A stretch of 64,000 nt of DNA from Coriobacteriia bacterium (GTDB lineage Bacteria > Actinomycetota > Coriobacteriia > WRKU01 > WQUG01): NCBI GenBank assembly GCA_009779855.1, contig WRBC01000005.1, forward strand, positions 43,115-107,114. The letters run 5' to 3'. Below are positions 10,858 through 57,442 of the stretch, in pieces (positions within the stretch are counted from its first letter, which is position 1; each line of letters opens with the position of its first letter). Made by a program: the position numbers and the translations under genes. The notes beneath the pieces were generated by a model. It saw only the letters and a list, made by a program, of their open reading frames with translations, was not told where the DNA came from and did no database searches.

Positions 10858-11693
10858 ATAAGCTGATTAAGCATGAGTTCACTGCACTAGGACGTACTCT
10901 TATAGTAATCCACATGGTCCTTGTGGTCGTCAGTCTTCTTACGGCAGGGATTGGCCTGCTTAAGCCTGCCGGGAATTTCTTTAGCCTGCTTATTGTGCCC
11001 GCAGTAACGATTCTTTACTTCGTGGTAGTGTTTGGGGTGGGTTTCATAACACTTTTTGTAGTTGCTCAGCGTTTTTACACGAACTTGCTGGGGCCAGAAG
11101 GTTACTTGATGTTCACTTTGCCCGTATCAAGGCGTGATTTAATCTTGGCTAAGTTTATTCCGGCGATGTCTTGGCATATGATCTCAACAGTATTATCCAT
11201 TGCCTCGGTCGTTATAGTAGCGCTTGCCTGGACAGATACAAGCATCCTTGCCTACCAGCTGCTTTCTGGGATTAACGAACTCTTTTCCCTGGGAGAGGTT
11301 TCCACAGTGCTTATCGTGGCACTTATTGCGCTTACTTTTGCAGGAAGTGCAAATTATATCCTGATGGCGTACCTATCTATGGCTTTAGGCCAATTGGCTA
11401 ATAAAGGACGGATTGTCCTGTCAGTCGCCATTTATTTTGGGATTTACATGACTCTGCAATTTTTAGGTCTTATTGTAGTAGCGATAGTGGCTTTGGTTGC
11501 TCCTGCATCTGCCTTAGAGGTGCAGGTTGTTGGCGGGCATGCCTTTACGGTAATTGCGCTTGCAGAACCCTTTGATGACCAGGGCTTATTAGCACTTGTG
11601 CTGTTAGGGGCAACAGCACTTACCTTAGGGGCAAGTGTTGCCTATTTCTTCATCACTGAACGCCTTTTAGATAGGCGCCTTAATCTGCTTTAG
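10851..11693 (+). CDS. ABC-2 type transporter permease
   Basis: 280 aa with about six hydrophobic helices. Start overlaps the ATPase stop. Confidence 0.75.
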   Translation: MLDKLIKHEFTALGRTLIVIHMVLVVVSLLTAGIGLLKPAGNFFSLLIVPAVTILYFVVVFGVGFITLFVVAQRFYTNLLGPEGYLMFTLPVSRRDLILAKFIPAMSWHMISTVLSIASVVIVALAWTDTSILAYQLLSGINELFSLGEVSTVLIVALIALTFAGSANYILMAYLSMALGQLANKGRIVLSVAIYFGIYMTLQFLGLIVVAIVALVAPASALEVQVVGGHAFTVIALAEPFDDQGLLALVLLGATALTLGASVAYFFITERLLDRRLNLL

Positions 11694-11786
11694 TTGAGTG
11701 AAGCTTCTTTTTTACAGGAAGTAATCGTTGTGGTATTGGCTGGTAAGATAATACAGGTTAAATGACTCGTGAAAGGAGCCTAGCAT

Positions 11787-12119
11787 ATGGCCTTAACTCA
11801 GGCTGAAGTCCGCGAGATTGGATTGATTGCTCGTCTTAATTTAGAGGACGGGGCAATTGAGGGACTCCAAGAAGAACTAAATCAAATTCTAACCTATGTT
11901 GAGCACATGCAGGAGCTTGACCTTGAGGGAGTAGCACCCACAGCCTATTCGACAGATTTCACGGATAGTCTGCGTGACGATGTGCGTGTTCCCAGTCTGC
12001 CGCGCGAGGCAGTACTTATGAATGCTCCCGAATCAAAAGAGGGGGCGTTTCTTGTCCCGCGCATTAAGGCACTTGGGATAGAGGACAGCAGAGAAGATAC
12101 AGCGGGGGGGGGCTCATAA
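11787..12119 (+). CDS. gatC: Asp-tRNA(Asn)/Glu-tRNA(Gln) amidotransferase subunit C
   Basis: 'LTQAEVREIGLIARLNL...LNQILTYVEHMQELDLEGV' is typical GatC. RBS AAAGGAG. Lies directly upstream of gatA. Confidence 0.9.
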   Translation: MALTQAEVREIGLIARLNLEDGAIEGLQEELNQILTYVEHMQELDLEGVAPTAYSTDFTDSLRDDVRVPSLPREAVLMNAPESKEGAFLVPRIKALGIEDSREDTAGGGS

Positions 12120-13625
12120 ATGTCTGATACGCAGAAGCGATTGGCGGATACGCTTCCTTTCATGTCGGCCACAGAGGTCTCTGCGCTGGTGACCAGCAAA
12201 GAGGTCAGCGCACGTGAAGTTGCGCATACTATGCTAGATCGCATCAAGCAACTGGATGGTGACATCCACGCCTATAATGAGGTTACACCAGAGCTTGCTT
12301 TGGCCGCAGCGGATAACCTTGATAAACGTATAGCAGAAGGTGCCACGGCTGAAGAATTGGGTAAGCTAGCGGGTGCCCCTGTTGCCTTCAAGGACAATAT
12401 GAACTTAGTTGGCACACATACAACATGTTCATCAAAAATGCTGGAAGGTTTCCAGTCACCCTATGACTGTACGGCAGTGCGCAGACTTCTTGATGCGCAC
12501 ACTCTTCCCTTGGGCAAGCTTAATATGGACGAGTTCGCTTTTGGCTCCTCCACAGAAACCTCTGCTACGGGACTTACCCATAATCCGTGGGACCACAAGC
12601 GTGTTCCAGGGGGATCTTCTGGGGGAAGTGCCGCAGCGGTTTCAGCAGGTATGGCGACCATTACTCTAGGTTCTGACACAGGAGGATCCATTCGTCAGCC
12701 AGCAGCCTTTACCGGTACCGTTGGACTAAAGCCTAGCTACGGACGTGTGTCTCGTTATGGCTGTGTTGCTTTCGCATCATCGCTGGACCAGATTGGGCCT
12801 TTCTCTCACACGGTTCGTGACAGTGCGCTTGCGCTAGGTGCCATTGCAGGAAAAGATCCGCTAGATGCTACCAGTATGAATGTTCCTGCTGAAGACTATT
12901 TTGCAAGCTGCAATCAGGGCGTGGAGGGTATGCGCGTAGCCGTGGCTACTGACTTGCTAGAACAAGAAGGCCTTGATCCGCGCCTAAAGAAAGAAGTTCT
13001 GGACAGTGCAGAATTGCTTGCTGGTATGGGTGCAGAGGTTGTGGAAATCACATTGCCCTCTACCAAGTACGGGCTTCCTGCTTATTACGTACTGGGCCCA
13101 GCGGAGGCCTCCAGCAACATGGCACGTTTTGATGGTATTCGCTACGGTCATCGTGCAGAGAATGCAGAAGATATTCTTGACCTGTATATGCGCAGTAGAT
13201 CAGAGGGCTTCGGTGATGAAACTATTCGCCGCATCATGATAGGTACCTATGTTCTTAGCTCAGGACATTATGACAGCTACTACATGCAGGCTCAAAAGGT
13301 ACGTACGGTTATCAGAGATGACTACAAGGCGGTGTTCGCCCAGGCGGATGTTTTGCTGACTCCTTCAACGCCTGTGCTGCCCTTCAAGTTTGGCGAATTT
13401 GCTGATGATCCTACGGCTATGTACTTATCGGATTACTATACGATTCCTGTAAATATGGCAGGTATTGCAGGTATGTCTTTACCGACGCGCCTTATTGATG
13501 GTCTGCCTGCAAGCGTTCAATTGGTAGCGAATCATTTTAGAGAGACTGACTTATTCCGTGCAGGTGCAGCATTAGAGAGCAGCTTTGCTTTTCCTTACGA
13601 CAGTGTTCCTGCAGGACAGGCATAA
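12120..13625 (+). CDS. gatA: Glutamyl-tRNA(Gln) amidotransferase subunit A (amidase signature family)
   Basis: Amidase signature 'GGSSGGSAAAV' and 'GSDTGGSIRQPA'. 501 aa. Confidence 0.95.
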   Translation: MSDTQKRLADTLPFMSATEVSALVTSKEVSAREVAHTMLDRIKQLDGDIHAYNEVTPELALAAADNLDKRIAEGATAEELGKLAGAPVAFKDNMNLVGTHTTCSSKMLEGFQSPYDCTAVRRLLDAHTLPLGKLNMDEFAFGSSTETSATGLTHNPWDHKRVPGGSSGGSAAAVSAGMATITLGSDTGGSIRQPAAFTGTVGLKPSYGRVSRYGCVAFASSLDQIGPFSHTVRDSALALGAIAGKDPLDATSMNVPAEDYFASCNQGVEGMRVAVATDLLEQEGLDPRLKKEVLDSAELLAGMGAEVVEITLPSTKYGLPAYYVLGPAEASSNMARFDGIRYGHRAENAEDILDLYMRSRSEGFGDETIRRIMIGTYVLSSGHYDSYYMQAQKVRTVIRDDYKAVFAQADVLLTPSTPVLPFKFGEFADDPTAMYLSDYYTIPVNMAGIAGMSLPTRLIDGLPASVQLVANHFRETDLFRAGAALESSFAFPYDSVPAGQA

Positions 13626-13645
13626 GCAAGCAAGCGACAGCAAGA

Positions 13646-15163
13646 GTGAATGACGATAAGAAATATATAAGGACAACACGGACTACGATGAAGGCGGAAA
13701 AGGACATAAAAAAGCCTCTCGATGTTGACGAAGGAAACCCTGAAGAGGGAATCAACGGAAATGGTGAGGTGGGCACTGCAGAGCTTGAGCAAGTAGTTGC
13801 AGATCAGGCGGCTCGTGCTGCTGCGGCAAAAATCGAAGACTCTTCCTCTGAAGTTTCCGACAAAGCCCCTGCAGAAGATGACACGGCACTTTCTGACCAA
13901 CTGCAAGGCTTGCGTGGCGAATTGAAGTCCACACTACCAGAGCCAGAGAAGTTTTTAAGCTTTGAAGCAGCAGTGGCTGACAGAGAAAGCAGCGAAGAAG
14001 ATGAGCAGTCTCCGGGCAGATTTCCTAATTCCCCGCGCTTTTTGCTGCGTTTTGGCATCATTGCCCTTGTTGTTTCACTTATTGTAGTGGGTGGACTTGT
14101 CTTATTTCTTCGTGTAGAGATGCCCTCTTTGGTGGGACAGACTTCGGTAGAAGCAAGTGAGACCCTTGTCGACCTTGGGCTTGATTTTGAGCTTTTTGAA
14201 GAAGAAGTTCCTGGAACCCCTGCAGGACAGGTGCTCTCTACAACACCTGCAGCGGGTGAGTACGTTATGCGCGGCACAACGGTAGTAGTACGTGTTGCAG
14301 CAGATACTGATCTTGTGGCAGTACCCGACTTGCGAGGAATGAGTCTTGATGAGGCTAAAGAGGCTCTAACAGCTCTGCGCCTAGACGCTGAAACGGTTTA
14401 TACCTTTGACGGTGCTGTGCCTGCGGGCAACATCGTTGGTTTCTTGCCGGTAATAAATACGCAGATTCCTGCGGGTACTTCTGTGACTATCTTAGTTTCT
14501 GCAGGAGTATTCGAGGCATCCCTTGATGTCCCGCGTGTCATTGGCTTGACTGAAGAGGCAGCCCGTACCGTTTTGATAGAGGCAGGTTTTAATCCCGTCA
14601 TGTACTATGCAGCAACAACACGGGGAGAGATTGACCATGTTGTTTCACAAACCCCGGGTGAGGGTAATATGGTGAGTCCAGGATCGCCCATATTGATGAT
14701 GGTCTCAACAGGGAACTCTACTACAGATCATCCTATTCCTGACGTTTCAGAAGAGCGAAGGGCTGAGGCAGAAATTATTTTAGAGCAAGCAGGATTCGAG
14801 CCAGAGCCCTTTTCTATCGTGGATGCTGGCGTAGATGCAGGGACGGTTATCTCTCAGATGCCTCCTGCCCAGGATGCCTTGCTACGTTCTGGTGATCCTG
14901 TGGGACTGCTTGTCTCAGCAGGCGCGAACTCAGCAGCAGAGGTTCCGAGTGTTTTAGGACTAGATGAGGAATCTGCGCGCGATACACTTCGCGGGGTAGG
15001 ACTTAATGCCGTGTTTATTTTTGATCCTGTTCTGGCCGGATCATCTGTAGATGACATTAGCCCAGAAGTAAGGGGAGATATTGTTACGCAGCAATTTCCT
15101 GCGGGGGGTAGCCAGTATCATATCGGGCTTCCCGTCCTAGTATTTTTGTCAGCACAGGATTAG
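13646..15163 (+). CDS. Membrane protein with an acidic cytoplasmic N-terminus, one TM and five extracellular PASTA domains (no kinase domain)
   Basis: TM 'FGIIALVVSLIVVGGLVLFL'. Five ~65-aa repeats, each opening 'VP.L.G' or 'VPSVLGL' and closing '...V.LLVS'. Sits between gatA and gatB. Confidence 0.8.
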   Translation: MNDDKKYIRTTRTTMKAEKDIKKPLDVDEGNPEEGINGNGEVGTAELEQVVADQAARAAAAKIEDSSSEVSDKAPAEDDTALSDQLQGLRGELKSTLPEPEKFLSFEAAVADRESSEEDEQSPGRFPNSPRFLLRFGIIALVVSLIVVGGLVLFLRVEMPSLVGQTSVEASETLVDLGLDFELFEEEVPGTPAGQVLSTTPAAGEYVMRGTTVVVRVAADTDLVAVPDLRGMSLDEAKEALTALRLDAETVYTFDGAVPAGNIVGFLPVINTQIPAGTSVTILVSAGVFEASLDVPRVIGLTEEAARTVLIEAGFNPVMYYAATTRGEIDHVVSQTPGEGNMVSPGSPILMMVSTGNSTTDHPIPDVSEERRAEAEIILEQAGFEPEPFSIVDAGVDAGTVISQMPPAQDALLRSGDPVGLLVSAGANSAAEVPSVLGLDEESARDTLRGVGLNAVFIFDPVLAGSSVDDISPEVRGDIVTQQFPAGGSQYHIGLPVLVFLSAQD

Positions 15164-44253: not shown

Positions 44254-45453
44254 ATGAGTAGTAGAACTAAACAAAGAAGAAACGCGAGGAAGAAGATGAT
44301 TAAGGCTATGAAAGGTGCCCGCGCTAAACTTTCTTTTGCGCTCGCACTTGCACTGGTCATGGGTCTTACAGCCGCTGGTACGGCTTTTGCAGATCCAGCC
44401 CCAATCTACGTTAATCCAAACAGTTATGCAGAGATCACAAAGGTTCTCGAGAGACCCATGGGGGTACACCTGCCAGAGCCAGCAGATGCAGGATTCAATT
44501 TCTCTGCAACACCGCAGGCTTTTGATGGGGGCACGATTCCCTCAGGATTAAGCTTTCCAGACATTGCATCAATCTCTCTAAATACCAATGATGGGGTTCT
44601 TCCTGATGTTTGGGAACGCACTTATCCTGAGAATTGGGGAGTCGACTCCATCGAAAGATCTGTTAGATTTGACCTCGCTGACTTGACCTTCAGTCGTGCG
44701 GGACAGTATGACTATTTGGTAGAACAGCAGCCCAATAGTCACGAGGACATCACTGACTCGAGCGAGAGGTATATATTGCGCCTAACCGTTGGGCAAAACA
44801 ACGCCATCAGCAATGTGCAATTCTTTGACTTCCGTGCGGGTAGCATGGGCGCTGCAATTGATTCTCCTCGCTTTATAAGCACCTATACGCCTGTGGGATC
44901 GCTTAGCATTACGAGTGAAGTAGCGGGCGCTGATGCTGATGAACATAAGGACTTCGATTTTAGAATCAGGCTAACCAGCACATCTTTTGCAGATTTTGAT
45001 GGCACAGTGGACGCGACGATTACTAATGCCGCAGGTTCGGGAGCATCAAGCCACACTATCACCTACAATCAGTGGTATAGCTTTACCTTGCAGCATGGCT
45101 GGAAAATGGAAATCAGCAATCTGCCTTTGGGTACTGCCTTCATGGTAAATGAGCCAGCTCCAACAGATTACATTCCTTCAGTTGATGTTACCGTAGATGG
45201 GAATATCTCCTTTGTCTATTCTGTAGGTGACCTAGATAGAGCAATCACCTCAGAATCAGCTTTGGCACAGGCTTTCTTGGTAGAAGAGCGTGTAGTGGGT
45301 GCGGGAGAAAACCTCGTAGCCTTTAGTCACTACATGCCTGATACTCCAGAACCGCACATCGTGCAGGACAATCTGGTCTGGTTTGCTGTTGCAGGTATAG
45401 GGGCAGTATTCTTCATAGCCCTTGTAGTGTTTATGCGTAAGCGTCTTAATTAA
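44254..45453 (+). CDS. Secreted cell-surface protein with a C-terminal TM anchor (no LPXTG)
   Basis: Signal peptide 'LSFALALALVMGLTAAGTAFA'. C-terminal 'VWFAVAGIGAVFFIALVVFMRKRLN'. Preceded by a 170-nt AT-rich leader. Confidence 0.6.
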   Translation: MSSRTKQRRNARKKMIKAMKGARAKLSFALALALVMGLTAAGTAFADPAPIYVNPNSYAEITKVLERPMGVHLPEPADAGFNFSATPQAFDGGTIPSGLSFPDIASISLNTNDGVLPDVWERTYPENWGVDSIERSVRFDLADLTFSRAGQYDYLVEQQPNSHEDITDSSERYILRLTVGQNNAISNVQFFDFRAGSMGAAIDSPRFISTYTPVGSLSITSEVAGADADEHKDFDFRIRLTSTSFADFDGTVDATITNAAGSGASSHTITYNQWYSFTLQHGWKMEISNLPLGTAFMVNEPAPTDYIPSVDVTVDGNISFVYSVGDLDRAITSESALAQAFLVEERVVGAGENLVAFSHYMPDTPEPHIVQDNLVWFAVAGIGAVFFIALVVFMRKRLN

Positions 45454-46967: not shown

Positions 46968-47732
46968 ATGCAAGTGGCCGCAAACCCACAAGTAGGAGGC
47001 AGCAATATGTCCTTAGGCTCAAACAATCAATCTTCTGCAGATGAATCTTCTTCAAGTCAGCACAGTTCCCCCAACCCTTCTTCGGATGGACTTCGTTTAG
47101 GCGAACATTTTCTAAACGAGCCTTCTCCAGGTGACGGCAAGCTTTCACGAAAGAAAATTGCGCTTACGGCGGTAGCTGTAAGCGTTGTTGTTTTGCTGCT
47201 TTCGGCTTGTTCTGTTTTTGCACTATATTTCCTTTGGCATGGGCCAGGTATGATGCCCTGGGATAGTTATCGCTGGCATGACGATCCTCAAAGCAACATC
47301 GTGCTTATAGAAGAGTCTGATTCAGCGGCGATAGATTTCATTGTTGGTGAATATAAGGTGACAGAAGTTCAGTATATTTTTGAGAATCAAGAGTTCGATT
47401 CTGACTATGAAGGTCATGAGTGGATACTCCAAAGGTATGTGCTCAATTCTGATTCAAGCTTTGAAAGAATTTTCCCCGATTCCTTTGTAGAGAAGGGCAC
47501 CTTTACTATAGAAAATATTTCTGACGATGAGCTGGCTGCCAGAGGCGACCGAGGAATCAGTCGTTTTTTCGATGAGCGCTCAGAAGCAGAAACCTACCGT
47601 ATGATTTTTAGCATTGAGGAAGGTCCTCGTGACTTTCATGAAGAGATAATCGTGTCCCATGCAGGGGATGAAGACATAGCTTTCTATTTCCCTGAATTTG
47701 GGGATATTGAAATGCTCATTAGAGCAAGGTAG
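46968..47732 (+). CDS. Hypothetical membrane-anchored protein with an S-rich N-terminus
   Basis: 'SSADESSSSQHSSPNPSS' low complexity, TM 'IALTAVAVSVVVLLLSACSVFALYF', acidic extracellular domain. Confidence 0.45.
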   Translation: MQVAANPQVGGSNMSLGSNNQSSADESSSSQHSSPNPSSDGLRLGEHFLNEPSPGDGKLSRKKIALTAVAVSVVVLLLSACSVFALYFLWHGPGMMPWDSYRWHDDPQSNIVLIEESDSAAIDFIVGEYKVTEVQYIFENQEFDSDYEGHEWILQRYVLNSDSSFERIFPDSFVEKGTFTIENISDDELAARGDRGISRFFDERSEAETYRMIFSIEEGPRDFHEEIIVSHAGDEDIAFYFPEFGDIEMLIRAR

Positions 47733-47789
47733 TAGACTTCCACAGCGCCTTTTTTGTTCATGCTTCTGCTACACTGTTTTAATACTCTA

Positions 47790-48015
47790 TTGGTTCTATG
47801 TGCTGCGGACCGGCACAAAGACGAAGAGGGAAGCTGGTGAAAATCCAGCGCAACCCCCGTTGCCGTAATAGGGAACGAGGATTAAGCACAGGCCACTGGC
47901 GCGGATTGCGCTGGGAAGGCGCTTGTCCTCATTTGACCCTTAAGCCGGAAGACCTGTCAAAGAGCCCTAAAAAGTATCTGTCTTTCGGCGGGAAAGACCG
48001 GATCTATCTTTTTAA
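47790..48015 (+). promoter_or_regulatory. Cobalamin (B12) riboswitch with a putative attenuator hairpin
   Basis: Core elements readable directly: 'AGAGGGAAG', 'GGTGAAAATCC', 'GCCACTG', 'GGGAAGGC', and B12-box 'AAGCCGGAAGACCTG'. Then a 7-bp hairpin GTCTTTC-GGCGG-GAAAGAC (47980-47998) and a T-run (48008-48012). Ends about 50 nt before the ATG at 48066. Confidence 0.85.
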
Positions 48016-48065: not shown

Positions 48066-51000
48066 ATGCACGTCAGATCAAACATAAGCCTTAGGCTTGC
48101 ACTAGTCTTAGCGATATTTGCATTTTCGTTATTAGTGATGGTTCCCGTAGCGTGGGCGCAAGAGGTTACTGCTACTTTGCGCGTAGAATTTATTGAAGAT
48201 ACGAGGCTTGCTCCTATGGAAGTTACGATGGAGCACAGACCTCTCAGTGACTTTGGTATAAACATGAGCGATCCGGGCTTTGTTACTCCTATCCACCTTC
48301 TTGCAGAAGGACTTGAGCAGCGTTACGGTGCAGGATCTGCGGCAAGCATGATTAATGCTCCTGGAATGCTCATGACTATCGATGATTCTTTCGGCTCGAT
48401 TGCAGGTGAGCCCAATGTATGGTGGATGTTTGCCATCAACCAATCGATGCCTGTGTCTACAGATACTGGATGGGGATATGCCTCAAATCAGTACCGTGTT
48501 CAAAACGGCGATGATATTGACTTCCTGGGCATGTGGGGAGGTCAGTGGGGTGTAGCGTCACCCTTTATAGGCTTCTTTGGTAGCCAGACTTACCATACTA
48601 CTGTTGGGCAGCCCTTAGAGGTTGAATTGCTTGGGCTTGATGGCTTTGATGACTTTGCTGTGAGACCTTCGCGCATACTTGAGGGCGCAGAAATCCTTGT
48701 AGACCCTGCAGGCAGTACACGTGCTGGCGCGACAACAGCTAGCGGCACTTTTATTGATGAAGAGGGTCTGGCAGAACTCACTTTCGACGAAGCAGGTACA
48801 TTTCTGCTTAGTGCAAGGCGACCTATCGCAAGCCCCAGCAGCCCTAGTGGTACGGTCAGTGACATTACTCGTCCCTTTGCGGTAGTAACAGTAAGCGAGT
48901 CATCTGGTCAGCCTAACTGGACTCAAGAGGGTGCCCCAGCAGCAAGTATAGATTTCAGCATTGAAGAGCTCACCAATCTAGTTCCAGGTGTTGAGTACAG
49001 CATTGACAGCACAGGCAGCACTGACAGTGCGCGTATCGTGGCTAATGCGGACGGAACAATTCCTCTAAGTGAAGCCTGGTTTGGACAAGGCATAGATATT
49101 GTACGGCTGGGTATTGCAGCAAATCATACTCTTGATAGTGACCCTCAGAACTTAGCAGTTCCTTCTCGTTCGTCTGCCCCCACGGGTCTAGGCTCAATTG
49201 ACGCGACGGGTACTGTTGAAAGTGCTACGGGCGTGATTACAGGGGTAGGTTCTGCTATGGAGTGGCGTCTACGTACGGGAACTACATGGACGGCTGTCTC
49301 AGGTGCAACGGTAGAGAATCTTATTCCAGGCACTTATTATGTTCGCTTCCAGTCAGAACCAGGCTCTTTCGCTAGTGCATCCGCAGCAGTAATCGTGTCC
49401 CTAGATCAGCAGTACTGGTCTCAAGCAAGCACGCCAACAGCAGCAGTAGATTTTGAACTTGAGGTACTTACGGGACTCACCCCAGAAGCTGCCTACCTTA
49501 TTGCTGGACAACATAACATGAGTGATTCAAGTGGCGCGATTCTTTTGGACGCTGCGTGGCTTGGTCAGAATATTAGTATCGTAAAGTTAGGCAATCCTGC
49601 CAACTTTACCCTTGATAGCGATGTCCAGTCTCTTGCGGTCCCGCTACGTCCGCATGCTCCTACAGGGCTAAGCCCAGCTAATGCAACAGGCACAAATAGT
49701 GACGGCTCTATTGCTGGTGTGGCCTTCACTATGGAGTGGCGCTTAAGCACTTCACATGCCTGGACAGCTGTTACAGGCGCGACCATAGAAAATCTTGTAG
49801 CAGGCACCTACCATGTTCGCTTCCGGGCTACATCAGGGTCCTTTGCAAGTGCCTATGCCACAGTAACGGTATCTGTGACAGGAGAGCTGCCCAGTGTCAG
49901 GTGGAGTTCTTTTCGTGGCAATGCCTTTAATTTGGCAAGAGTCGATTCAGGTACTCCAGCTACAAACCAACTAGGTAGAACACTTTGGAGCCAGCCAGTT
50001 AGTGATGGGTCATCAGCCCTGTCCCCAGTAAAGGTGGGTGACGCCGTTTACATTGCAGGTGGGTCGACTTTGTGGAAACTTGATTCTGCGGGAAGCATAG
50101 TTGACACAGTGCCTCTTGAAGCTCCCATAGGGCAGGCGGCCTTCCTTGCGGCAGGCAGTGGTAAAATTTTCGTACCCATTGGTGCTGGACAAGTGCAGGC
50201 TTTTGATGCACACACTCTGCAGCCACTTTGGACATCTGAGCCTTTTGCAAGCAATTGGCAGGCTTTAGGTGCACTGACGTATAAAGATGGTTACCTCTAT
50301 GGTTCTGCAAGTTTTGACCTCTTTATGCGCCATAGCGAAGGGGCCTTCTTCTGTCTTGATGCAAGCACCGGTGAAGAAGTATGGACCCACTCTTCCTCTT
50401 CTGGTGCAGCCCAGACAGGATTCTATTGGGCGGGCGCAGCAGTGACAGATCATGTAGTACTTTTTGCAGGTGATGAGGGCATATTGGTTTCACACACTGC
50501 GGGAACACAGACGGCACGAGCAACGGGAATCGTTGACACGGCCGTGCTTGCTGGTGGCGTGCGTAGCCCCGTACTGTTTGTTGAAAATGAGGTGTCTGCT
50601 GATGGCAGCGGTGTTGCTTTTGCTTCAACACGAGACGGTTTTGTGTCACGTGTCGTGGTTGCTGCTGACGGCAGCCTAGGTCCAGTCCTGTCGGCCCCCT
50701 TAAGCGGAGAGATATCCACGGCGACACCGGTAATATACCGAAATCGTCTTTATGTTGTATCAGGGGAACTGCTTGATGGTGGCTACGTAGATGTCTTTAG
50801 CGCAACAACGCTAGAGCGCTTGCGTAGTATTGAGCTGCCCGGATTTAGCCAGTCTTCTCCACTTCTTGCTACTGCTGGCTCAAATAGTGCTAATGGCTAT
50901 GAAGTGTCATTGTTTGTGGCGCTTAATGATATGCAAGACGATGTTGTCCGTATTATTGATTCAGAGCGTGTTGGTGCTGAAATGCGCGCAGAAACCTTTC

Positions 51001-51596
51001 TAAGTCCAGGGGGATCGTTTGCACTGAATTCTGTAAGCGCCTGTGATCAGGGTAGACTCTATTATGTTGATGGACGTGGCAATTTCACTGCAATTACCGC
51101 TGCGAACCAGCAGTTGTCACCAGGCAATGGCGGTAACGGCAATAACGGTAACGACAATAACAACAATGGTGACGCTGGTGGAGGCACGGATGGCAGCGGT
51201 AATAATGGTGGTGCTAACGATGACATCTACTCACCTCAAGAGGAGGACGAGACTACCTCTGAAGAATCTGGTTCTGAAGATGCCACAGGGATTCCAGGCG
51301 ATGGATCAAGGGCAGCAGGCGAAGGTCCAAAAACTGCTGATGTAAGTGATGCTATGCGTTGGCTTTTCTTTGCGGCATTAGCGCTGACAGCAGGGTTTGC
51401 AGTGATTGCAGCTAAAATAGCTGACCGAAAAAAAGAGAAGCTGAAAAAGCTAGAAAAATTCAAAGAAGACGCTAGCCAGCACGAAGACAGCAAGGCCACT
51501 GTAGCGACGACACCGGTGGCAGCAGGTCAAGCAGAACATAGCGAGGGTGCTGACTTGCAGAGTCCGTACCAAAATAAACAGGAGCAGCGCGTATGA
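48066..51596 (+). CDS. Large cell-surface protein: signal peptide, DUF4430-like (transcobalamin-like) domain, two tandem ~160-aa repeats, PQQ/BamB-like beta-propeller, N/G-rich linker and C-terminal TM anchor. Putative cobalamin-capture protein.
   Basis: Signal peptide 'LALVLAIFAFSLLVMVPVAWA'. N-terminal 'ATLRVEFIED...NVWWMFAINQ...YRVQNGDDIDF' resembles the DUF4430 domain of the downstream lipoprotein. Propeller blades such as 'VYIAGGSTLWKLD' and 'GQVQAFDAHTLQPLW'. C-terminal 'WLFFAALALTAGFAVIAAKIADRKK'. First gene after the B12 riboswitch. Confidence 0.8.
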   Translation: MHVRSNISLRLALVLAIFAFSLLVMVPVAWAQEVTATLRVEFIEDTRLAPMEVTMEHRPLSDFGINMSDPGFVTPIHLLAEGLEQRYGAGSAASMINAPGMLMTIDDSFGSIAGEPNVWWMFAINQSMPVSTDTGWGYASNQYRVQNGDDIDFLGMWGGQWGVASPFIGFFGSQTYHTTVGQPLEVELLGLDGFDDFAVRPSRILEGAEILVDPAGSTRAGATTASGTFIDEEGLAELTFDEAGTFLLSARRPIASPSSPSGTVSDITRPFAVVTVSESSGQPNWTQEGAPAASIDFSIEELTNLVPGVEYSIDSTGSTDSARIVANADGTIPLSEAWFGQGIDIVRLGIAANHTLDSDPQNLAVPSRSSAPTGLGSIDATGTVESATGVITGVGSAMEWRLRTGTTWTAVSGATVENLIPGTYYVRFQSEPGSFASASAAVIVSLDQQYWSQASTPTAAVDFELEVLTGLTPEAAYLIAGQHNMSDSSGAILLDAAWLGQNISIVKLGNPANFTLDSDVQSLAVPLRPHAPTGLSPANATGTNSDGSIAGVAFTMEWRLSTSHAWTAVTGATIENLVAGTYHVRFRATSGSFASAYATVTVSVTGELPSVRWSSFRGNAFNLARVDSGTPATNQLGRTLWSQPVSDGSSALSPVKVGDAVYIAGGSTLWKLDSAGSIVDTVPLEAPIGQAAFLAAGSGKIFVPIGAGQVQAFDAHTLQPLWTSEPFASNWQALGALTYKDGYLYGSASFDLFMRHSEGAFFCLDASTGEEVWTHSSSSGAAQTGFYWAGAAVTDHVVLFAGDEGILVSHTAGTQTARATGIVDTAVLAGGVRSPVLFVENEVSADGSGVAFASTRDGFVSRVVVAADGSLGPVLSAPLSGEISTATPVIYRNRLYVVSGELLDGGYVDVFSATTLERLRSIELPGFSQSSPLLATAGSNSANGYEVSLFVALNDMQDDVVRIIDSERVGAEMRAETFLSPGGSFALNSVSACDQGRLYYVDGRGNFTAITAANQQLSPGNGGNGNNGNDNNNNGDAGGGTDGSGNNGGANDDIYSPQEEDETTSEESGSEDATGIPGDGSRAAGEGPKTADVSDAMRWLFFAALALTAGFAVIAAKIADRKKEKLKKLEKFKEDASQHEDSKATVATTPVAAGQAEHSEGADLQSPYQNKQEQRV
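48914..49885 (+). repeat. Intragenic tandem duplication (two ~480-nt / ~160-aa repeat units) inside the large surface-protein gene
   Basis: Units NWTQEGAPAASIDFSIEELTNL...AAVIVS and YWSQASTPTAAVDFELEVLTGL...ATVTVS align at roughly 50% identity. The antisense artefact ORFs 49145-49333 and 49565-49807 are near-copies of each other for the same reason. Confidence 0.85.
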
Positions 51597-52540
51597 AAAG
51601 GTGCGCATTGAGAGTTGCCATCTGTCTACTTGCAGCGCTATTTATTCTAGTGCTTGCTGGCTGCAGCCGACCTGAGCACACAGGACCAAAAGCAAGTAAT
51701 ACTTCTGCCAGCACAAACATTGTCACGAGTGGTCCAAGCAAGTCATCGGCTGAAGGAACATCCACTGCCACAGATACCTCATTGGATGATGAGCAAGATC
51801 AGAACGAAGATGCTGATGCAGAAGCAATAGGCCAAACAGGTGACGATTCTGAAGGTTCTGCTGAGGATACTGAAGCACAGGGACAAAATGCAGGAAGCAG
51901 TTCTGGTGGCAGTTCCCGCAATTCTAATTCTGGCAGTAATGGGTCAGGTTCCTCCACAGCAAGTTCTGGGGGCCAGGGTACAGGTGCAGGCACAAATTCT
52001 AGCGGCGGTAATGTCTCTACACAAAATAGTAACCGAAATACAGGACAAAGCTCTGGGGGAAGTTCAAACCAAAACGCGAACCGAAATTCCGGACAGGGTT
52101 CAGCAGGAAATTCTAGTCAAGGCAACACGGGTACCGGGCAGTCACAATCTGGCGGATCTAACCAGAGTAATACCCCTAGGACTATTACCGTGTCGATTGA
52201 AATCGAGGCACGTCTGGCTCACGCGCAAAATCCAGCAGCGCTATCAGGCATCGCTAATAATGGGATAATTCTTGCACGTAGGAATGTGACCTTACAGGAA
52301 GGTGCAACAGTACGCCAAGCCTTAGATGCAACAGGAATACGTGTTAATGCGCGCGGAGCATATATTGCAGGGATTGGTGGTCTATCTGAAGGGGACATAG
52401 GTCCCCGCAGTGGCTGGATGTTTAGCGTAAACGGGCAATTTCCCGGAAGTTCTGCATCTGCTCAAAGACTTAACGCAGGGGATGTAATCGCGTGGCGCTA
52501 TACCCTGAATGGGGGAGCAGACCTCGGTGCCAGCTGGTAG
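51593..52540 (+). CDS. Lipoprotein with a long S/G/N/Q-rich disordered linker and a C-terminal DUF4430-like (transcobalamin-like) domain
   Basis: Lipobox 'LVLAGC'. About 150 aa of low complexity. C-terminal 'ITVSIEIEARL...RRNVTLQEGATVRQALDATGI...RSGWMFSVNGQFPGSSASAQRLNAGDVIAWRY'. ATGA overlap with the upstream gene. Confidence 0.8.
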   Translation: MKRCALRVAICLLAALFILVLAGCSRPEHTGPKASNTSASTNIVTSGPSKSSAEGTSTATDTSLDDEQDQNEDADAEAIGQTGDDSEGSAEDTEAQGQNAGSSSGGSSRNSNSGSNGSGSSTASSGGQGTGAGTNSSGGNVSTQNSNRNTGQSSGGSSNQNANRNSGQGSAGNSSQGNTGTGQSQSGGSNQSNTPRTITVSIEIEARLAHAQNPAALSGIANNGIILARRNVTLQEGATVRQALDATGIRVNARGAYIAGIGGLSEGDIGPRSGWMFSVNGQFPGSSASAQRLNAGDVIAWRYTLNGGADLGASW

Positions 52541-52595
52541 AACGTACAGAAGGCATAGGCTAAAACGGCGCTTCTTGTTGTTGCATCCAGGTGTT

Positions 52596-53483
52596 ATGAT
52601 GGCCTTTTTTGTTGGTGTCATTGTGGTGACCTTGCTTAGCTATCACCCATTAATCCTGGGACTTTCTTTTGTGTTTGCGGCAGCAAGTGTAATCTACTAT
52701 CTAGGAGTAAAGGTACTGGGACGGTCATTAATGTGGTTAGGACCGATGACTGCTATTGTTGTAGTTTTTAATACGGTATTTAATCGTCGCGGTGCGACAG
52801 AACTTTTCACTACCGAACACCTTCAGATGACTTTTACCTTAGAGAGTCTACTTTTTGGCCTAAGTATTGCACTTATGCTGACTGCAGTTATTCTCTGGTT
52901 TCGCCTTTATCAAGAACTTATGACAAGTGATCGCTTTCTTTATCTTTTCGCACCTATTGCCCCAACTTTCGCCCTAAGTGTCACCATGGTGCAGCGCTGG
53001 ATTCCTCTAACGAAGTATCGTTGGCAGCAGATTAGAGATGCTCATAAACCCTCAAGATTTGCGGCTATTCGATCTTTGACACACTCATTGTCAGCACTCA
53101 TGTCATGGTCTATGGAGGATGCTATACAGGCAGCAGACTCGATGCAGGCTCGTGGATACAGTAAAAGTAGTTCTAGCAATTACGGCAAGAATAATCAAGG
53201 CAAAGGCGCTCATGATACAAGGAAACGACGCAGAAGTAGCTTTCGATACTTTCCTTTCACCACTTATGATGCCATCGCACTTACTGTAGTCATCTTACTT
53301 GCTGTCACAGCGGGACTAGCCGTCTTTTTCTCAGCTAGAGAGCTCGCCTTTTTCCCCGTTTATAGGGGCGTTGAATATCTTTCTGCCACTGCCCTAATAG
53401 CTGTAACCCTGCTTATGTTTTTTCCACTGCTGCTTGAAGGTGGTGAGCAGCTAAGATGGCGATTATCCGCGCAGAAAACCTAG
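52596..53483 (+). CDS. ecfT: ECF transporter transmembrane (T) component, EcfT/CbiQ family
   Basis: About 5 TM. Coupling-helix-like 'DSMQARGYS' (the A-R-G motif typical of EcfT). An in-frame upstream extension to 52509 has no TM and is probably not translated. Overlaps ecfA by 28 nt. Confidence 0.7.
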   Translation: MMAFFVGVIVVTLLSYHPLILGLSFVFAAASVIYYLGVKVLGRSLMWLGPMTAIVVVFNTVFNRRGATELFTTEHLQMTFTLESLLFGLSIALMLTAVILWFRLYQELMTSDRFLYLFAPIAPTFALSVTMVQRWIPLTKYRWQQIRDAHKPSRFAAIRSLTHSLSALMSWSMEDAIQAADSMQARGYSKSSSSNYGKNNQGKGAHDTRKRRRSSFRYFPFTTYDAIALTVVILLAVTAGLAVFFSARELAFFPVYRGVEYLSATALIAVTLLMFFPLLLEGGEQLRWRLSAQKT

Positions 53484-55198
53484 GTTTTACCTATCCAGAA
53501 GCTCAAAATTCAACCTTTGATGAGGTTAATTTTCAAATCAGTGCAGGGGAGTTTGTCCTATTATGTGGACGCACAGGTAGCGGCAAGACGACCTTGTTGC
53601 GACAGCTTGTCCCGGCTCTTGCCCCTCATGGTCAGTCTACAGGTGAACTTGAAGTAAAGGGAAGTGTAGGCTTTGTTCAACAGACCCCCGATAATCAAAT
53701 TGTTACAGACATTGTTTTTCATGAACTTGCTTTTGCTTTAGAAAATCAAGGTCTGCCAACCCAGACCATCAGGCGGAAAGTGGCGGAGATCGCCAGCTAC
53801 TTCGGCCTGGAGTATTTACTAGAAGCAAAGACACATTCTTTGTCAGGCGGACAGAAGCAAATCCTTAACCTAGCAGCAACCCTTGTAGCCGAGCCAGACA
53901 TCCTTGTCCTTGATGAGCCAACCAGTGAACTTGACCCTATAGCTGCACAGAACTTTTTGCGTCACCTGGCACGTATTAATCGTGAGCTGGGAACTACGGT
54001 AGTATGCTGTGAGCATCGCCTAGATGAAGTTCTTGACCTTTGTGACAGGGTCTTGTTGATGAGCAAGGCAAAGGGACAGGATTTAGGAAAGCAGGACATA
54101 GAGGGACGAAACATCGAGGAACAAAACTCCAAAGAACAGGACGTTCAGTCGCATACAGCGCAGCAATTCGTCCAGAGTTGTCTGGGAGTCAATAGGAACT
54201 TTGCTCTTTACTTGCCAGAACCCACCCGTATTGCTCTTGCTGCTGCCAGTGCAAAGAGGACTCCTGCAGAGCCTGTAGGATCCGCCGTAAAGTCCATAAA
54301 GCTCACAGAATGGCCTCTTGATGTAAAAAGTGGGCGCACTTGGTTGATAGAAAACCTTGCTGTGTTTCCTCATGCGCAGACGAAGCCTTCTGTGCAATCA
54401 TCATCTTTCTCTTCGTCATCCCTGTCAGGGCCCCCTGCAATCACTATCCGGGATCTTTGTTTTCGCTATGAAAGGGAGGAGCCTTTCATAATAAGATATC
54501 TGAACGCTACGTTTAGTCGGGGAAATGTGCATGGCATAGTAGGCGGAAACGCTTCAGGAAAGTCTACTTTGCTTGGGCTTATCTCAGGTATACACCGATC
54601 CCAGCTAGGCAAGGTCCGCATAGACAGAAACTTAAGATTGGCAGCACTGCCTCAAAATCCTAAGGCGAATTTTGTTTGTGATACCGTGCGCGAAGATCTT
54701 CATGACTCAAATACAGAAATAGATGCAGAGGCAGTGCTACAGGTGGCACGTGACATGGATATTACTCATCTATTAAACAGTCATCCCTATGACCTTTCTG
54801 GGGGAGAAACCCAAAAGGCGGTTCTTGCAAAGTTGCTACTAAAAGATCCCGATATCCTCTTACTGGATGAACCAACTAAGGGTCTGGACGCACAGGCAAA
54901 ACAGGAAATTGGACGTATCTTTGACCAATTGGCTCAGCAGGGGAAAACGCTCATTATCGTTACTCACGATCTTTCTTTTGCAGCAGAGCATACGCAGACA
55001 TGCTCTCTTTTAGCAAATGGTGAGCTTATAGCCCAGGACCAAACTCACAATTTCTTTCTTGGGAATAGCTTCTACACTACGCCGACAAATCGTATGTCCC
55101 GAGGCATTGTTGATGACTGTGTAATCGCTGATGATATTCTTAGGGCCCTGAAGCTTGAAGAGTCTCAGCAAAAGGCTCAAGAAGCTCCCCTGTTATGA
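53456..55198 (+). CDS. ecfA: Fused ECF transporter ATPase (EcfA-EcfA', two NBDs; CbiO family)
   Basis: NBD1: 'GRTGSGKTT', 'LSGGQKQIL', 'LVLDEPTSELD'. NBD2: 'GGNASGKST', 'LSGGETQKA', 'LLLDEPTKGLD'. Confidence 0.9.
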   Translation: MAIIRAENLGFTYPEAQNSTFDEVNFQISAGEFVLLCGRTGSGKTTLLRQLVPALAPHGQSTGELEVKGSVGFVQQTPDNQIVTDIVFHELAFALENQGLPTQTIRRKVAEIASYFGLEYLLEAKTHSLSGGQKQILNLAATLVAEPDILVLDEPTSELDPIAAQNFLRHLARINRELGTTVVCCEHRLDEVLDLCDRVLLMSKAKGQDLGKQDIEGRNIEEQNSKEQDVQSHTAQQFVQSCLGVNRNFALYLPEPTRIALAAASAKRTPAEPVGSAVKSIKLTEWPLDVKSGRTWLIENLAVFPHAQTKPSVQSSSFSSSSLSGPPAITIRDLCFRYEREEPFIIRYLNATFSRGNVHGIVGGNASGKSTLLGLISGIHRSQLGKVRIDRNLRLAALPQNPKANFVCDTVREDLHDSNTEIDAEAVLQVARDMDITHLLNSHPYDLSGGETQKAVLAKLLLKDPDILLLDEPTKGLDAQAKQEIGRIFDQLAQQGKTLIIVTHDLSFAAEHTQTCSLLANGELIAQDQTHNFFLGNSFYTTPTNRMSRGIVDDCVIADDILRALKLEESQQKAQEAPLL

Positions 55199-55863
55199 AC
55201 CTTCTTATCTCGTCAGTCGTAGTAGGTATACCTCTTATTGTGCTGGTTTTTGGGATTGAGCGCGTGAAGCCTCGCCCCCGCGACCTTATGCCTGTGATAG
55301 TTTTAACGGCCCTTGCTATATTGGGGCGTGTGGCTGCCATGCCTATTCCTAATTTTCAGCCAGCAACAGCACTCATTATTCTAGCGGGTTTCTTTTTTGG
55401 TAGACACGCAGGGTTACTTTCGGGCATGTTGGTCGCGCTAGTTTCGAATATATTTATGGGACAGGGCCCCTGGACTCCTTGGCAGATGCTTACCTGGGGG
55501 CTTGTGGGTTACGGAGCAGGACTTTTAGGGGACAGAGTAAGCTGGGCCCAGCCTCACGAAGTTGAGCCCAGAGAACCTGAGAAGAACAGATACACAAAAC
55601 GCAGGAGGATCATTTTGCTTGCGGTTGTAATCATCTACGGTGTGGTGGCATCACTACTCTTTGGGATGATTATGGACGTACAGTTCTTTGTTGCTTATAT
55701 CTGGGAATCAGGATGGCCAGGTCTTGTGGCTACATGGATGATGGGTCTGCCCATGAATGTTGCTCACGCGGCTTCAACATGCATCTTCTTGGTGCTTACC
55801 CTTATTCCCTGGGGAAAGAAGTTTCATCGTCTAAAGACGAAGTACGGAATCCGAAGCATTTAG
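55195..55863 (+). CDS. Putative ECF substrate-specific (S) component; by operon context, a cobalamin-specific S unit
   Basis: 222 aa and about 6 TM. 'LVSNIFMGQGPWTPWQMLTWGLVGYGAGLL' looks like an S component. ATGA overlap with ecfA. Last gene of the riboswitch-led operon. Confidence 0.6.
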   Translation: MNLLISSVVVGIPLIVLVFGIERVKPRPRDLMPVIVLTALAILGRVAAMPIPNFQPATALIILAGFFFGRHAGLLSGMLVALVSNIFMGQGPWTPWQMLTWGLVGYGAGLLGDRVSWAQPHEVEPREPEKNRYTKRRRIILLAVVIIYGVVASLLFGMIMDVQFFVAYIWESGWPGLVATWMMGLPMNVAHAASTCIFLVLTLIPWGKKFHRLKTKYGIRSI

Positions 55864-55907: not shown

Positions 55908-56612
55908 ATGAGTGATGAGCAAGCAAAGTCTCGTATTGGGGTCTATTTGGACTGTGACACCAGTCATCCTAAAGAACATCAGCATAATTTGAATATGATG
56001 GAAGCGCTTAGACTCTGTACGGATGCAGACGGACAGTCGTATGAAATCTATGTTTACAGTGCAAAAAAGGTGTGGAAAAACTATTGCAAAGAGCACTCAT
56101 TGACCTATCGTCCTTTTCCCACAAGTGGTGCTTCGAATCATATTGGCAAAATGCTGTTTGGGAAGTACATTGATAGCCCAAAGCCGCCTGAATGGGTGGG
56201 GGAGATGCTCAACCGCAAGGCGCATGATTTTAAGGTAGAGACTATGATTTTCTCTGCCCCAACGACATTAGTACAACAGATGCAGCTGCCAACGGTAGTG
56301 GTTATGCTCGATCTAGCAGCGAACGGCGTTGGTGATTATGACGCGCAGTGGTATAAAGATCTTTATCAATCGATACTAAAGAATGCGACAGCCGTTATTG
56401 TGGATCCAACAGAGGGAACTGATTATTTGAACGAAGCACTGGCTGAAAATCCGGCAGATGTAAAGATGCTTTCGCTTGATGCCAGCTCTAATGTACTGGC
56501 TTTTAGTCTGGCTACTGTGCTGCGCTCTGTGGCGGTGTCCTCACCTGCAGAAGAGTCCAATCCTGTATCAGAGCCCGAATTTACGACAGAATCTAAAGTA
56601 GGGGGAGAATAA
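55908..56612 (+). CDS. Hypothetical cytoplasmic protein
   Basis: 234 aa, no recognised motifs. RBS AAGGAG. Its stop overlaps the punA start. Confidence 0.45.
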   Translation: MSDEQAKSRIGVYLDCDTSHPKEHQHNLNMMEALRLCTDADGQSYEIYVYSAKKVWKNYCKEHSLTYRPFPTSGASNHIGKMLFGKYIDSPKPPEWVGEMLNRKAHDFKVETMIFSAPTTLVQQMQLPTVVVMLDLAANGVGDYDAQWYKDLYQSILKNATAVIVDPTEGTDYLNEALAENPADVKMLSLDASSNVLAFSLATVLRSVAVSSPAEESNPVSEPEFTTESKVGGE

Positions 56613-57442
56613 TGGACGTACTTACAAAAATCAAACTTGTTGAAGCTAAACTGAAGGCTATATTAGATAAAAATGGTGTCGTTATGCCAGAGGTTGCCAT
56701 TGTATTAGGAAGCGGACTCTCTGATGTTGCAGACAATGTTATAGATCCACTTGTTATTTCCTATGATGAACTTGCAGACTTTCCTGTGGCTACAGCTCCA
56801 GGTCACAAGGGGCGTTTTGTTGTGGGTAATCTGGGGGATACTCCTGTGATAATAATGCAGGGACGCATCCACTACTATGAGGGTTATCCAATGACAGATG
56901 TTGTTCTTCCCGTGCGCGTGCTTGCTCGCCTAGGTGTTAAGAATTTTGTTTTGACCAACGCTGTAGGTGGCCTAGCAGACGGAATGCGCGAGGGTGACCT
57001 AATGCTCATTACTGACCATATTTCAACCTTTGTTCCTTCTCCGCTTATTGGTCCTAATATTGATGAGCTTGGCTTGCGCTTTACCGACATGACTCATGTT
57101 TATGATGTAGGTTTACAGAATGTTTTCCGCGAAGCGGCAGATAAGCTGGATATTCGCCTGCTCGAAGGGGTATATGCTCAGTTCACGGGACCCCAATTTG
57201 AGACTCCGACAGAGATTCAATTACTGAAAGGCTTGGGTATTGATGTTGTTGGCATGAGTACCGTTGTAGAGGCCATTGCACTACGCCATATGGATATTCG
57301 TGTCAGTGGGGTTAGCTGCATCACAAATCTGGCAGCGGGCATTAGTGACGAGCTACTATGCGGCAGTGACGTGGTAGATGTTGGGACCGAAGTCGGACCA
57401 ACTGTGACGGCTCTAATCTCTGAAGCTGTCAGGAATTTTTAG
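56612..57442 (+). CDS. punA: Purine nucleoside phosphorylase (trimeric PNP-I/PunA type)
   Basis: 'GRIHYYEGY' and 'VGMSTVVEAI' (PNP family-1 signatures). Confidence 0.9.
   Translation: MDVLTKIKLVEAKLKAILDKNGVVMPEVAIVLGSGLSDVADNVIDPLVISYDELADFPVATAPGHKGRFVVGNLGDTPVIIMQGRIHYYEGYPMTDVVLPVRVLARLGVKNFVLTNAVGGLADGMREGDLMLITDHISTFVPSPLIGPNIDELGLRFTDMTHVYDVGLQNVFREAADKLDIRLLEGVYAQFTGPQFETPTEIQLLKGLGIDVVGMSTVVEAIALRHMDIRVSGVSCITNLAAGISDELLCGSDVVDVGTEVGPTVTALISEAVRNF

Follow-up and report, generated by a model that had tools for sequence, protein, structure and literature searches.

The question raised by this locus is what a lipoprotein made of a very long disordered linker and one small folded domain does on the surface of a bacterium, and how its function is tied to the transporter genes that follow it. 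The window analysed here is the whole stretch of 64,000 nucleotides (nt) from a Coriobacteriia bacterium (contig WRBC01000005.1), and the gene in question lies at its positions 51593-52540. An earlier note, made from the letters of the window, had proposed that the protein presents a putative B12-binding domain beyond the cell wall. On the whole, our analysis favours a reading of this kind, to which we give a probability of roughly two in three: the protein would be a lipid-anchored, surface-tethered corrinoid catcher that aids a dedicated importer of the energy-coupling factor (ECF)-CbrT type in a monoderm Coriobacteriia of the termite gut. The gene is composed as follows.

51593..52540, + strand: lipoprotein open reading frame (ORF), with a product of 315 amino acids (aa)
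51593..51664, + strand: predicted lipoprotein signal peptide with the lipobox LAGC (aa 1-24), from patterns and from the Cys kept in 8 orthologues
51665..52174, + strand: low-complexity tether, predicted to be disordered (aa 25-194, 170 aa), from composition and from the predicted local distance difference test (pLDDT)
52175..52540, + strand: DUF4430 / transcobalamin-beta-like SLBB domain (aa 195-315, 121 aa) and stop codon

The N-terminus of the product, MKRCALRVAICLLAALFILVLAGC, has three K or R among residues 1-7, then a hydrophobic core, and the lipobox LAGC at aa 21-24 with its cysteine at position 24 (Cys24). Here the lipobox criterion was a charged n-region, a hydrophobic h-region and [LVI][ASTVI][GAS]C with the Cys at position 15-35, and the segment also fits the PROSITE PS51257-style and G+LPPv2 lipoprotein patterns, both written as regular expressions. 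All eight of the closest cluster representatives keep the Cys, as [AG]C after a hydrophobic stretch, in signal peptides that otherwise differ. The lipobox that the earlier note had pointed out is thus well founded, and Cys24 would, as judged from the sequence, be the lipidated first residue of the mature lipoprotein. In the AlphaFold model, for which an alignment of 59 sequences was the input, the signal peptide segment is a helix. The linker that follows (aa 25-194) contains 41 S, 31 G, 20 N, 18 T, 14 Q and 14 A residues, with S/G/N/Q/T amounting to 73%; only five of its residues are bulky and hydrophobic, its net charge is -11, and an acidic patch occupies aa 61-95. Its pLDDT is 43-57 and the model gives it no secondary structure, so that the disorder claimed for the tether holds while the claimed length of about 150 aa is too short: the 170 aa counted here have a contour length of about 60 nm. 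The near-repeats once described in it, NSNRNTGQSSGG and NANRNSGQGSAG, are only loosely similar, since Tandem Repeats Finder returns no tandem repeats in the linker and a direct-repeat search of it gives only matches of 12-20 nt, of chance quality; the linker is of low complexity and holds no repeat array. The gene is joined to its upstream neighbour as had been observed, with ATGA at 51593-51596 forming its start and overlapping the stop of a 1176-aa ORF, and AGGAG stands about 12 nt 5' of it. NCBI labels the exact protein 'DUF4430 domain-containing protein [Coriobacteriia bacterium]'.

The nature of the C-terminal domain is shown by its family and by its modelled fold. The DUF4430-like domain, put at about 115 aa by the earlier note, is recovered in the HMM check over a domain of 121 aa: PF14478 matches with an E-value (E) of 2.6e-14, its score of 53.9 bits exceeding the cut-off of 23.8, and aa 237-304 align to positions 1-71 of the 72 in the profile. 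The domain (aa 195-315) is modelled by AlphaFold with a pLDDT of 96-98. When it is compared with the PDB by Foldseek, the best superpositions are on the beta domains of transcobalamin (TC), haptocorrin (HC) and intrinsic factor (IF), for example on the human TC beta domain 5NO0 (E 7.7e-7, TM score 0.73, root-mean-square deviation (rmsd) 2.7 Å), and the 19 PDB matches at E<=1e-3 comprise beta domains of these three proteins and the DUF4430 structure 3U7Z from R. gnavus, with nothing else among them. The model has a helix at aa 240-246 and then a beta-hairpin with strands at aa 251-254 and 257-261. A post-helix beta-hairpin is what defines the transcobalamin-like SLBB clade, and a conserved hydrophobic position of that hairpin stacks on the cobalamin base (PMC1796856); going by the model, the clade-defining insert is present in the lipoprotein domain. 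Of the 59 aligned sequences, 90% or more keep Y257 and I261, S273 and W275 are invariant, and the SGW and VNG motifs are kept across thousands of relatives that have very different partners. Pfam finds the alpha6/alpha6 barrel domain (PF01122 Cobalamin_bind) neither in the lipoprotein nor in any other product of the operon, and no match to Peripla_BP_2 or a BtuF-like two-lobed fold, the structured part being one beta-grasp domain of 121 aa. The lipoprotein is therefore neither a classical substrate-binding protein of an ABC importer nor a full-length protein of the TC, IF or HC type.

The operon to which the gene belongs also bears on its function, and its other features are these.

47774..47975, + strand: cobalamin riboswitch aptamer RF00174, 108.5 bits against a gathering score of 31.5, E 3e-26
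47968..48014, + strand: possible, uncertain expression-platform hairpin with a T-run, fold of -13.8 kcal/mol
48066..51596, + strand: 1176-aa surface protein with PF13360 PQQ_2, a signal peptide and a transmembrane helix
52509..53483, + strand: ECF transporter T component (CbiQ/EcfT-like), a polytopic membrane protein, assigned via orthologues
53456..55198, + strand: fused ECF A-A' ATPase with two ABC domains (PF00005 twice)
55195..55863, + strand: ECF S component, a CbrT homologue (phmmer against PDB 6FNP chain A, E 4.2e-11)

The riboswitch matches the full model (1-189), contains the B12 box GCCACUGG, and lies on the same strand 90 nt 5' of the first operon gene, which is that of the 1176-aa protein. 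From there the five genes at 48066-55863 overlap or almost abut. The start of the T gene may instead be at 52527 or 52596 according to public gene calls. The T component of the window has no direct match in Pfam, NCBIfam or the PDB sequences, so its assignment rests on its orthologues in loci L005, L014, L017 and L029 (phmmer E 3e-97 to 1e-21), which match PF02361 CbiQ above the cut-off. The A-A' protein matches TIGR04520 (E 1e-84) and TIGR04521 (E 2.8e-77) with scores that stay under the equivalog cut-offs because both ATPases are fused. The S component, whose start overlaps the ATPase stop, aligns to 6FNP chain A in two stretches (aa 33-103 and 154-218) and matches PF07155 at 1e-9 and DUF6580 at 3.6e-9 in Pfam. 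The cobalamin riboswitch and the CbrT-like S component, together with the transcobalamin-beta fold seen in the model, are what now speaks for the putative B12-binding domain first suggested from the sequence. At the 3' side of the module, a 234-aa ORF without a Pfam match begins 45 nt past the S component and is followed by a PNP_UDP_1 nucleoside phosphorylase gene (together 55908-57442), the stop of the former sharing base 56612 with the start of the latter; no terminator-like site was found between the ECF genes and the 234-aa ORF. As this pair recurs 3' of the module in L006 only, and not in L005 or in more distant loci, we do not count it in; the pair probably lies outside the B12 module.

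Based on the relatives of the lipoprotein, an overall view of the family and of its gene order can be given. An exhaustive HMMER search with the domain, used for the family size since a word-indexed search gave 9 matches, counts 6013 cluster representatives at E<=1e-3, of which 1068 also reach E<=1e-10. The best 150 relatives include 80 short proteins, at least 52 of which are built in the same way, with a lipobox, a low-complexity linker and the domain at the C-terminus, and many other relatives are giant multi-domain surface proteins with 2-9 matched domain stretches. A genome scan with one genome per species, for which the query alignment held 9 closer sequences, gives 303 relatives. The nearest ones (69-81% identity) belong to metagenome-assembled genomes of termite-gut Coriobacteriia, and at least 8 metagenome contigs encode the exact protein, with identical gene order in the four places shown. 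Gene order was counted in 80 loci from Coriobacteriia, Clostridia, Paenibacillus, Sporosarcina and further groups. In 60 of these a DUF4430 ORF stands immediately 5' of the ECF T gene, and 55 have T, A-A' and a CbrT-like S component all present. Of 22 of these loci scanned with Rfam, 16 have a riboswitch of the cobalamin class 5' of the genes and on their strand; among the six negatives, two loci are cut off upstream and one (Collinsella) is without adjacent ECF genes. The arrangement has thus been kept in Coriobacteriia, Clostridia and Bacilli, as a rule with a cobalamin riboswitch in front of it. Regulation and partnering are nevertheless not uniform in the family, because lipoprotein-sized DUF4430 genes in eight Collinsella loci (L068, L049, L050, L055, L059, L061, L062 and L065) have no ECF genes within 10 kb, the Atopobium locus L075 and also L044 have the ECF module and no cobalamin riboswitch at the gathering score, and L023 has its cobalamin riboswitch downstream only, at 17635.

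A separate observation concerns the transporter itself. In many loci of Oscillospiraceae and Clostridia, both ECF ATPase domains and the CbrT-like S component are found in one ORF, for example in L015, where the 875-aa ORF at 11256-13880 has ABC_tran twice and an ECF S component at aa 697-849, as confirmed by Pfam. Such a single A-A'-S ORF is also seen in L020, L023, L027, L033, L035, L037, L042, L043, L051, L056, L072 and L078. In a fusion of this kind the S component would be covalently held to the motor and unable to dissociate as in the usual ECF model.

The 1176-aa protein encoded directly upstream deserves a closer look, for it is the other surface protein of the operon. It begins with a signal peptide (aa 1-31), followed by an N-terminal domain (aa 33-176) and two 160-aa repeats (aa 283-604), and its C-terminal half consists of a PQQ-like beta-propeller (about aa 610-1010), a stalk rich in N, G, D and E (aa 1017-1090), a transmembrane helix (aa 1096-1118) and a Lys-rich cytoplasmic tail. 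Both surface proteins of the operon would therefore be membrane-tethered on low-complexity stalks, the lipoprotein through an N-terminal lipid and the large protein through a C-terminal helix. The N-terminal domain (window 48162-48593) reaches only E 0.052 against the Pfam DUF4430 family, while hhalign aligns it to the DUF4430 profile with a probability of 94% and E 1.3e-7 over just 33 columns (the SGWM..VNG...GD motif). Its AlphaFold2 model has a pLDDT of 70 and a predicted TM score of 0.72, and Foldseek places 3U7Z as its highest-probability match (probability 0.97, E 0.02) with haptocorrin next, none being at E<=1e-3. In the equivalent protein of the Clostridia locus L045, an unmistakable DUF4430 sequence stands ahead of the propeller. 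We conclude that the N-terminal domain is probably a diverged SLBB/DUF4430-like domain. The propeller matches PF13360 PQQ_2 at E 5.9e-10, and resembles PQQ-type propellers only, and weakly, at the sequence level; the NCBI name of the protein is PQQ-binding-like beta-propeller repeat protein. In 13 of the 80 related loci (e.g. L012, L016 and L045) the DUF4430-ECF module is likewise preceded by a PQQ-like propeller protein. A word-indexed homologue search gave 1 match for the N-terminus of the protein and 11 without signal peptide, C-terminal stalk and anchor.

A few further observations on the same protein may be added. The two repeats (aa 283-446 and 447-604) are in tandem and 51% identical (E 2e-51). 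They are probably missing from the closest orthologues, which have 779-899 aa and align to 41-43% of the query, and they align to the C-terminal end of NCBIfam NF045980, a family of transglutaminase-related lipoproteins from Mycoplasma, with E 2.4e-17 and a score far under the cut-off of that family. By analogy, the propeller proteins beside the DUF4430-ECF module may be said to echo the BtuG propeller of Bacteroides.

Taken together, the corrinoid-catcher reading suggests the following course of events. Low intracellular cobalamin would let the riboswitch at 47774-47975 permit expression of the five-gene operon. The 315-aa product would be exported, modified with diacylglycerol at Cys24 and cleaved by signal peptidase II, and in the mature form the 121-aa beta-grasp domain, transcobalamin-beta-like in its fold, would hang on a disordered, hydrophilic tether of 170 aa, which at about 60 nm is long enough to sample the wall zone and with which the domain could reach through the wall. 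The domain may then bind cobalamin or another cobamide by the face that the TC beta domain uses, and the ligand would either be concentrated locally at the membrane or be passed to the high-affinity S component, the CbrT homologue, after which the ECF module (T and the fused A-A') would drive import with ATP. The co-translated 1176-aa protein, with its stalk anchored by a transmembrane helix, its diverged SLBB-like domain and its propeller, would probably form an outer capture tier. As for the affinity, the isolated human TC beta domain by itself binds cobalamin and cobinamide, and extensive washing is needed for its apo form, although the full sub-picomolar clamp of TC requires the alpha domain (PMC5599065). 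A two-domain clamp of the TC type is impossible here because no alpha6/alpha6 barrel is fused or co-encoded. Since the operon encodes no alpha-domain partner, a moderate affinity is to be expected, and this would suit hand-off to an S component of higher affinity. A further and more tentative step, which we hold as possible though rather doubtful, is that monoderms run a two-tier extracellular cobamide relay ahead of the ECF transporter, with the propeller protein as the outer and the tethered beta domain as the inner tier, the latter shuttling ligand across the wall to CbrT.

Several points weigh against this reading. The likeness to TC is structural only, at 14-18% identity, and TC is reached by PDB sequence searches neither with the lipoprotein nor with the profile of 59 sequences, so that the link becomes visible solely through Pfam and structure. 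Most ligand contacts of TC are made via the backbone, and contact residues are therefore not comparable (PMC1796856). The R. gnavus structure 3U7Z was deposited as a 'putative metal binding protein', and an L. sakei ECF operon with TC-beta-like and alpha-like proteins has been tied by experiment to heme, not to B12 (bioRxiv 10.1101/864751). The operon, as scanned with Pfam, has no alpha/alpha-toroid partner, and the affinity may be low. The hairpin at 47968-48014 is no more stable than shuffled sequence (z = -0.5) and is absent from the + strand terminator scan; an intrinsic terminator as the expression platform of the riboswitch is at most a possibility. In the literature we found no bacterial DUF4430 protein with demonstrated B12 binding. 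Finally, ECF transporters operate without extracytoplasmic binding proteins, and a hand-off step is not required.

The same facts have to be read under other explanations. One of them takes the domain as a binder of another tetrapyrrole, chiefly heme, and the operon as a system for heme or iron acquisition like lsa1836-1840 of L. sakei, whose parts list is equal (ECF S, A-A' and T with a secreted transcobalamin-beta-like protein) and for which heme uptake is reported (bioRxiv 10.1101/864751); moreover, the ligand contacts of the fold, being mainly made by the backbone, are poorly conserved (PMC1796856). However, a cobalamin riboswitch of 108.5 bits heads the operon, its like is found in 16 of the 22 related loci, and the S component is a homologue of CbrT, whose B12 transport meets no competition from hemin (PMC5997447); the L. 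sakei authors themselves state that their S component is without the conserved cobalamin-binding residues (bioRxiv 10.1101/864751). We regard heme as a very unlikely ligand here. Another explanation does away with a ligand: the DUF4430 domain would be a beta-grasp adaptor that brings order to a surface complex by docking onto the propeller protein, the ECF complex or wall polysaccharide. Beta-grasp domains often act as adaptors between proteins, other SLBB families (ComEA and polysaccharide exporters) have been proposed to bind sugars or polysaccharides, and surface complexes of extracellular SLBB proteins were suggested by Burroughs et al. (PMC1796856). Within the operon, the gene overlaps that of a large surface protein bearing a diverged copy of a similar domain and is probably co-translated with it. 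Yet the hairpin insert of the model is peculiar to the transcobalamin clade, which binds ligands, in structure it is B12-binding beta domains that match best rather than SLBB domains of the ComEA or Wza type, and the conservation of SGW and VNG in spite of differing partners suits a small-molecule site better than a lineage-specific protein interface. An adaptor role is thus unlikely.

It may also be supposed that the domain does bind corrinoids, without transfer to the transporter, the lipoprotein serving as a surface reservoir, as a sink that starves competitors or as a selectivity filter among cobamides. Many cobamide analogues occur in the dense community of the termite gut, ECF-CbrT alone is enough for transport in proteoliposomes (PMC5997447), and Bacteroides surface lipoproteins as extracellular reservoirs have been proposed for BtuJ1 (bioRxiv 10.1101/2025.07.01.662609). 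Against this stands the position of the gene directly 5' of ECF T in 60 of the 80 loci and the riboswitch control that it has in common with the transporter, both of which speak for a part in uptake. We consider a reservoir without transfer quite unlikely, though reservoir and hand-off roles are compatible and this alternative is really a variant of the corrinoid-catcher reading that we prefer.

Besides the B12 operon, the window holds several other genes worth recording. At 5290-9099 a 1269-aa ORF combines RecJ-like DHH, DHHA1, RecJ_OB, HIRAN and DEAD/Helicase_C domains, an unusual nuclease-helicase fusion. A 399-aa surface protein at 44254-45453 has DUF7601, a weak match to Spy0128/FctA pilin-like proteins and a C-terminal hydrophobic anchor. 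Just 5' of the riboswitch, the 254-aa ORF at 46968-47732 has no Pfam match, an S-rich N-terminus and one hydrophobic segment. In addition, two PASTA-repeat proteins with 3 and 4 PASTA stretches (52-903 and 13646-15163) flank an ABC exporter pair and the gatB region, which is an ordinary context of cell-wall sensing and synthesis.

How the system stands among known ones can now be told. The closest precedent is the transcobalamin-like SLBB clade, defined by Burroughs, Balaji, Iyer and Aravind in 2007 as proteins with signal peptides and surface anchors in operons with CbiO- and CbiQ-like genes; the carriers are usually without B12 biosynthesis and were predicted to scavenge B12, and animals were proposed to have gained transcobalamin from such bacteria (PMC1796856). 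The lipoprotein agrees with this clade in PF14478, in the hairpin, in its surface or secreted location, in the CbiO-/CbiQ-like operon and in the predicted role of B12 scavenging. The 2007 survey stressed low-GC Gram-positives, planctomycetes and archaea, with signal peptides and LPXTG anchors, whereas the lipoprotein here comes from the Coriobacteriia (Actinomycetota), would be lipid-anchored, and has a tether (170 aa) that is unusually long against that survey. The riboswitch and the CbrT link also lie outside the 2007 argument. With the beta domains of TC, HC and IF (5NO0, 5NP4, 2BB6, 4KKI and 2PMV) the modelled domain shares the same fold, at an rmsd of 2.2-3.0 Å over about 120 columns; unlike mammalian TC, which is soluble and taken up by receptor-mediated endocytosis, the lipoprotein would be tethered to the membrane and serve a transporter. 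The lsa1836-1840 operon of L. sakei is alike in having ECF S, A-A' and T components and a secreted transcobalamin-beta-like protein (Lsa1839) for which extracellular ligand capture is proposed. It differs in having the alpha-like Lsa1840 and in being tied to heme, where the operon here has a propeller protein and a cobalamin riboswitch. ECF-CbrT of L. delbrueckii (6FNP) transports cobalamin and cobinamide, hemin being no competitor (PMC5997447), and the system here resembles it in the homologous S component, in the ECF architecture and in the presumed substrate, cobalamin or cobinamide. CbrT of L. delbrueckii shares the general module of group II, and no helper outside the cytoplasm has been described for it; the operon here encodes a dedicated module (group I-like) with fused A-A' and two surface proteins.

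The Bacteroides proteins BtuG, BtuH and BtuJ offer a functional likeness, with riboswitch-controlled loci, lipid-anchored surface capture of cobamides and a relay (PMC8941943, PMC10404256, PMC13616437), the capture role of the lipoprotein being a presumed one. A BtuG propeller with a smaller binder in Bacteroides is matched here by the 1176-aa propeller protein with the lipoprotein. The folds, however, are unrelated, the anchor is in the cytoplasmic membrane of a monoderm instead of the outer membrane, and an ECF transporter stands in place of the TonB-dependent BtuB. The B12-binding domain of BtuH is without known structural homologues (PMC8941943). The lipoprotein is not of the BtuH type, in which a globular domain follows Ig-like PKD domains, and has a beta-grasp domain instead. 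Homology to BtuH through a DUF4430 domain in that protein was considered and rejected: the BtuH paper mentions no such domain, and no BtuH appears among the 50 Foldseek matches listed.

The idea of B12 scavenging by this clade is not new, as it was predicted in 2007, and proteins of this type are common in Gram-positive bacteria. What is new here is the riboswitch, the CbrT link, the plan of lipoprotein plus tether with its frequency, the confirmation of the fold, and the probable second SLBB domain on the propeller protein. Extracellular cobamide capture in Gram-positives is called 'entirely uncharacterized' in a 2026 review (PMC13616437), and the one module relative that has been studied experimentally was assigned to heme. 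Cobamide competition shapes gut communities, and the family bears on the bacterial origin of the beta domain of transcobalamin and intrinsic factor. The gene itself adds no new principle beyond its family, yet the locus is a clean and compact case of a widespread module in which a riboswitch and surface SLBB proteins are combined with a dedicated ECF-CbrT, and it is a good candidate for experiment. If the two-tier relay is true, it would be the Gram-positive counterpart of the BtuG/BtuH/BtuJ relay of Bacteroides, made from the bacterial forerunner of the B12 carriers of animals, and some ECF transporters, which are usually described without extracytoplasmic binding proteins, would use such proteins after all.

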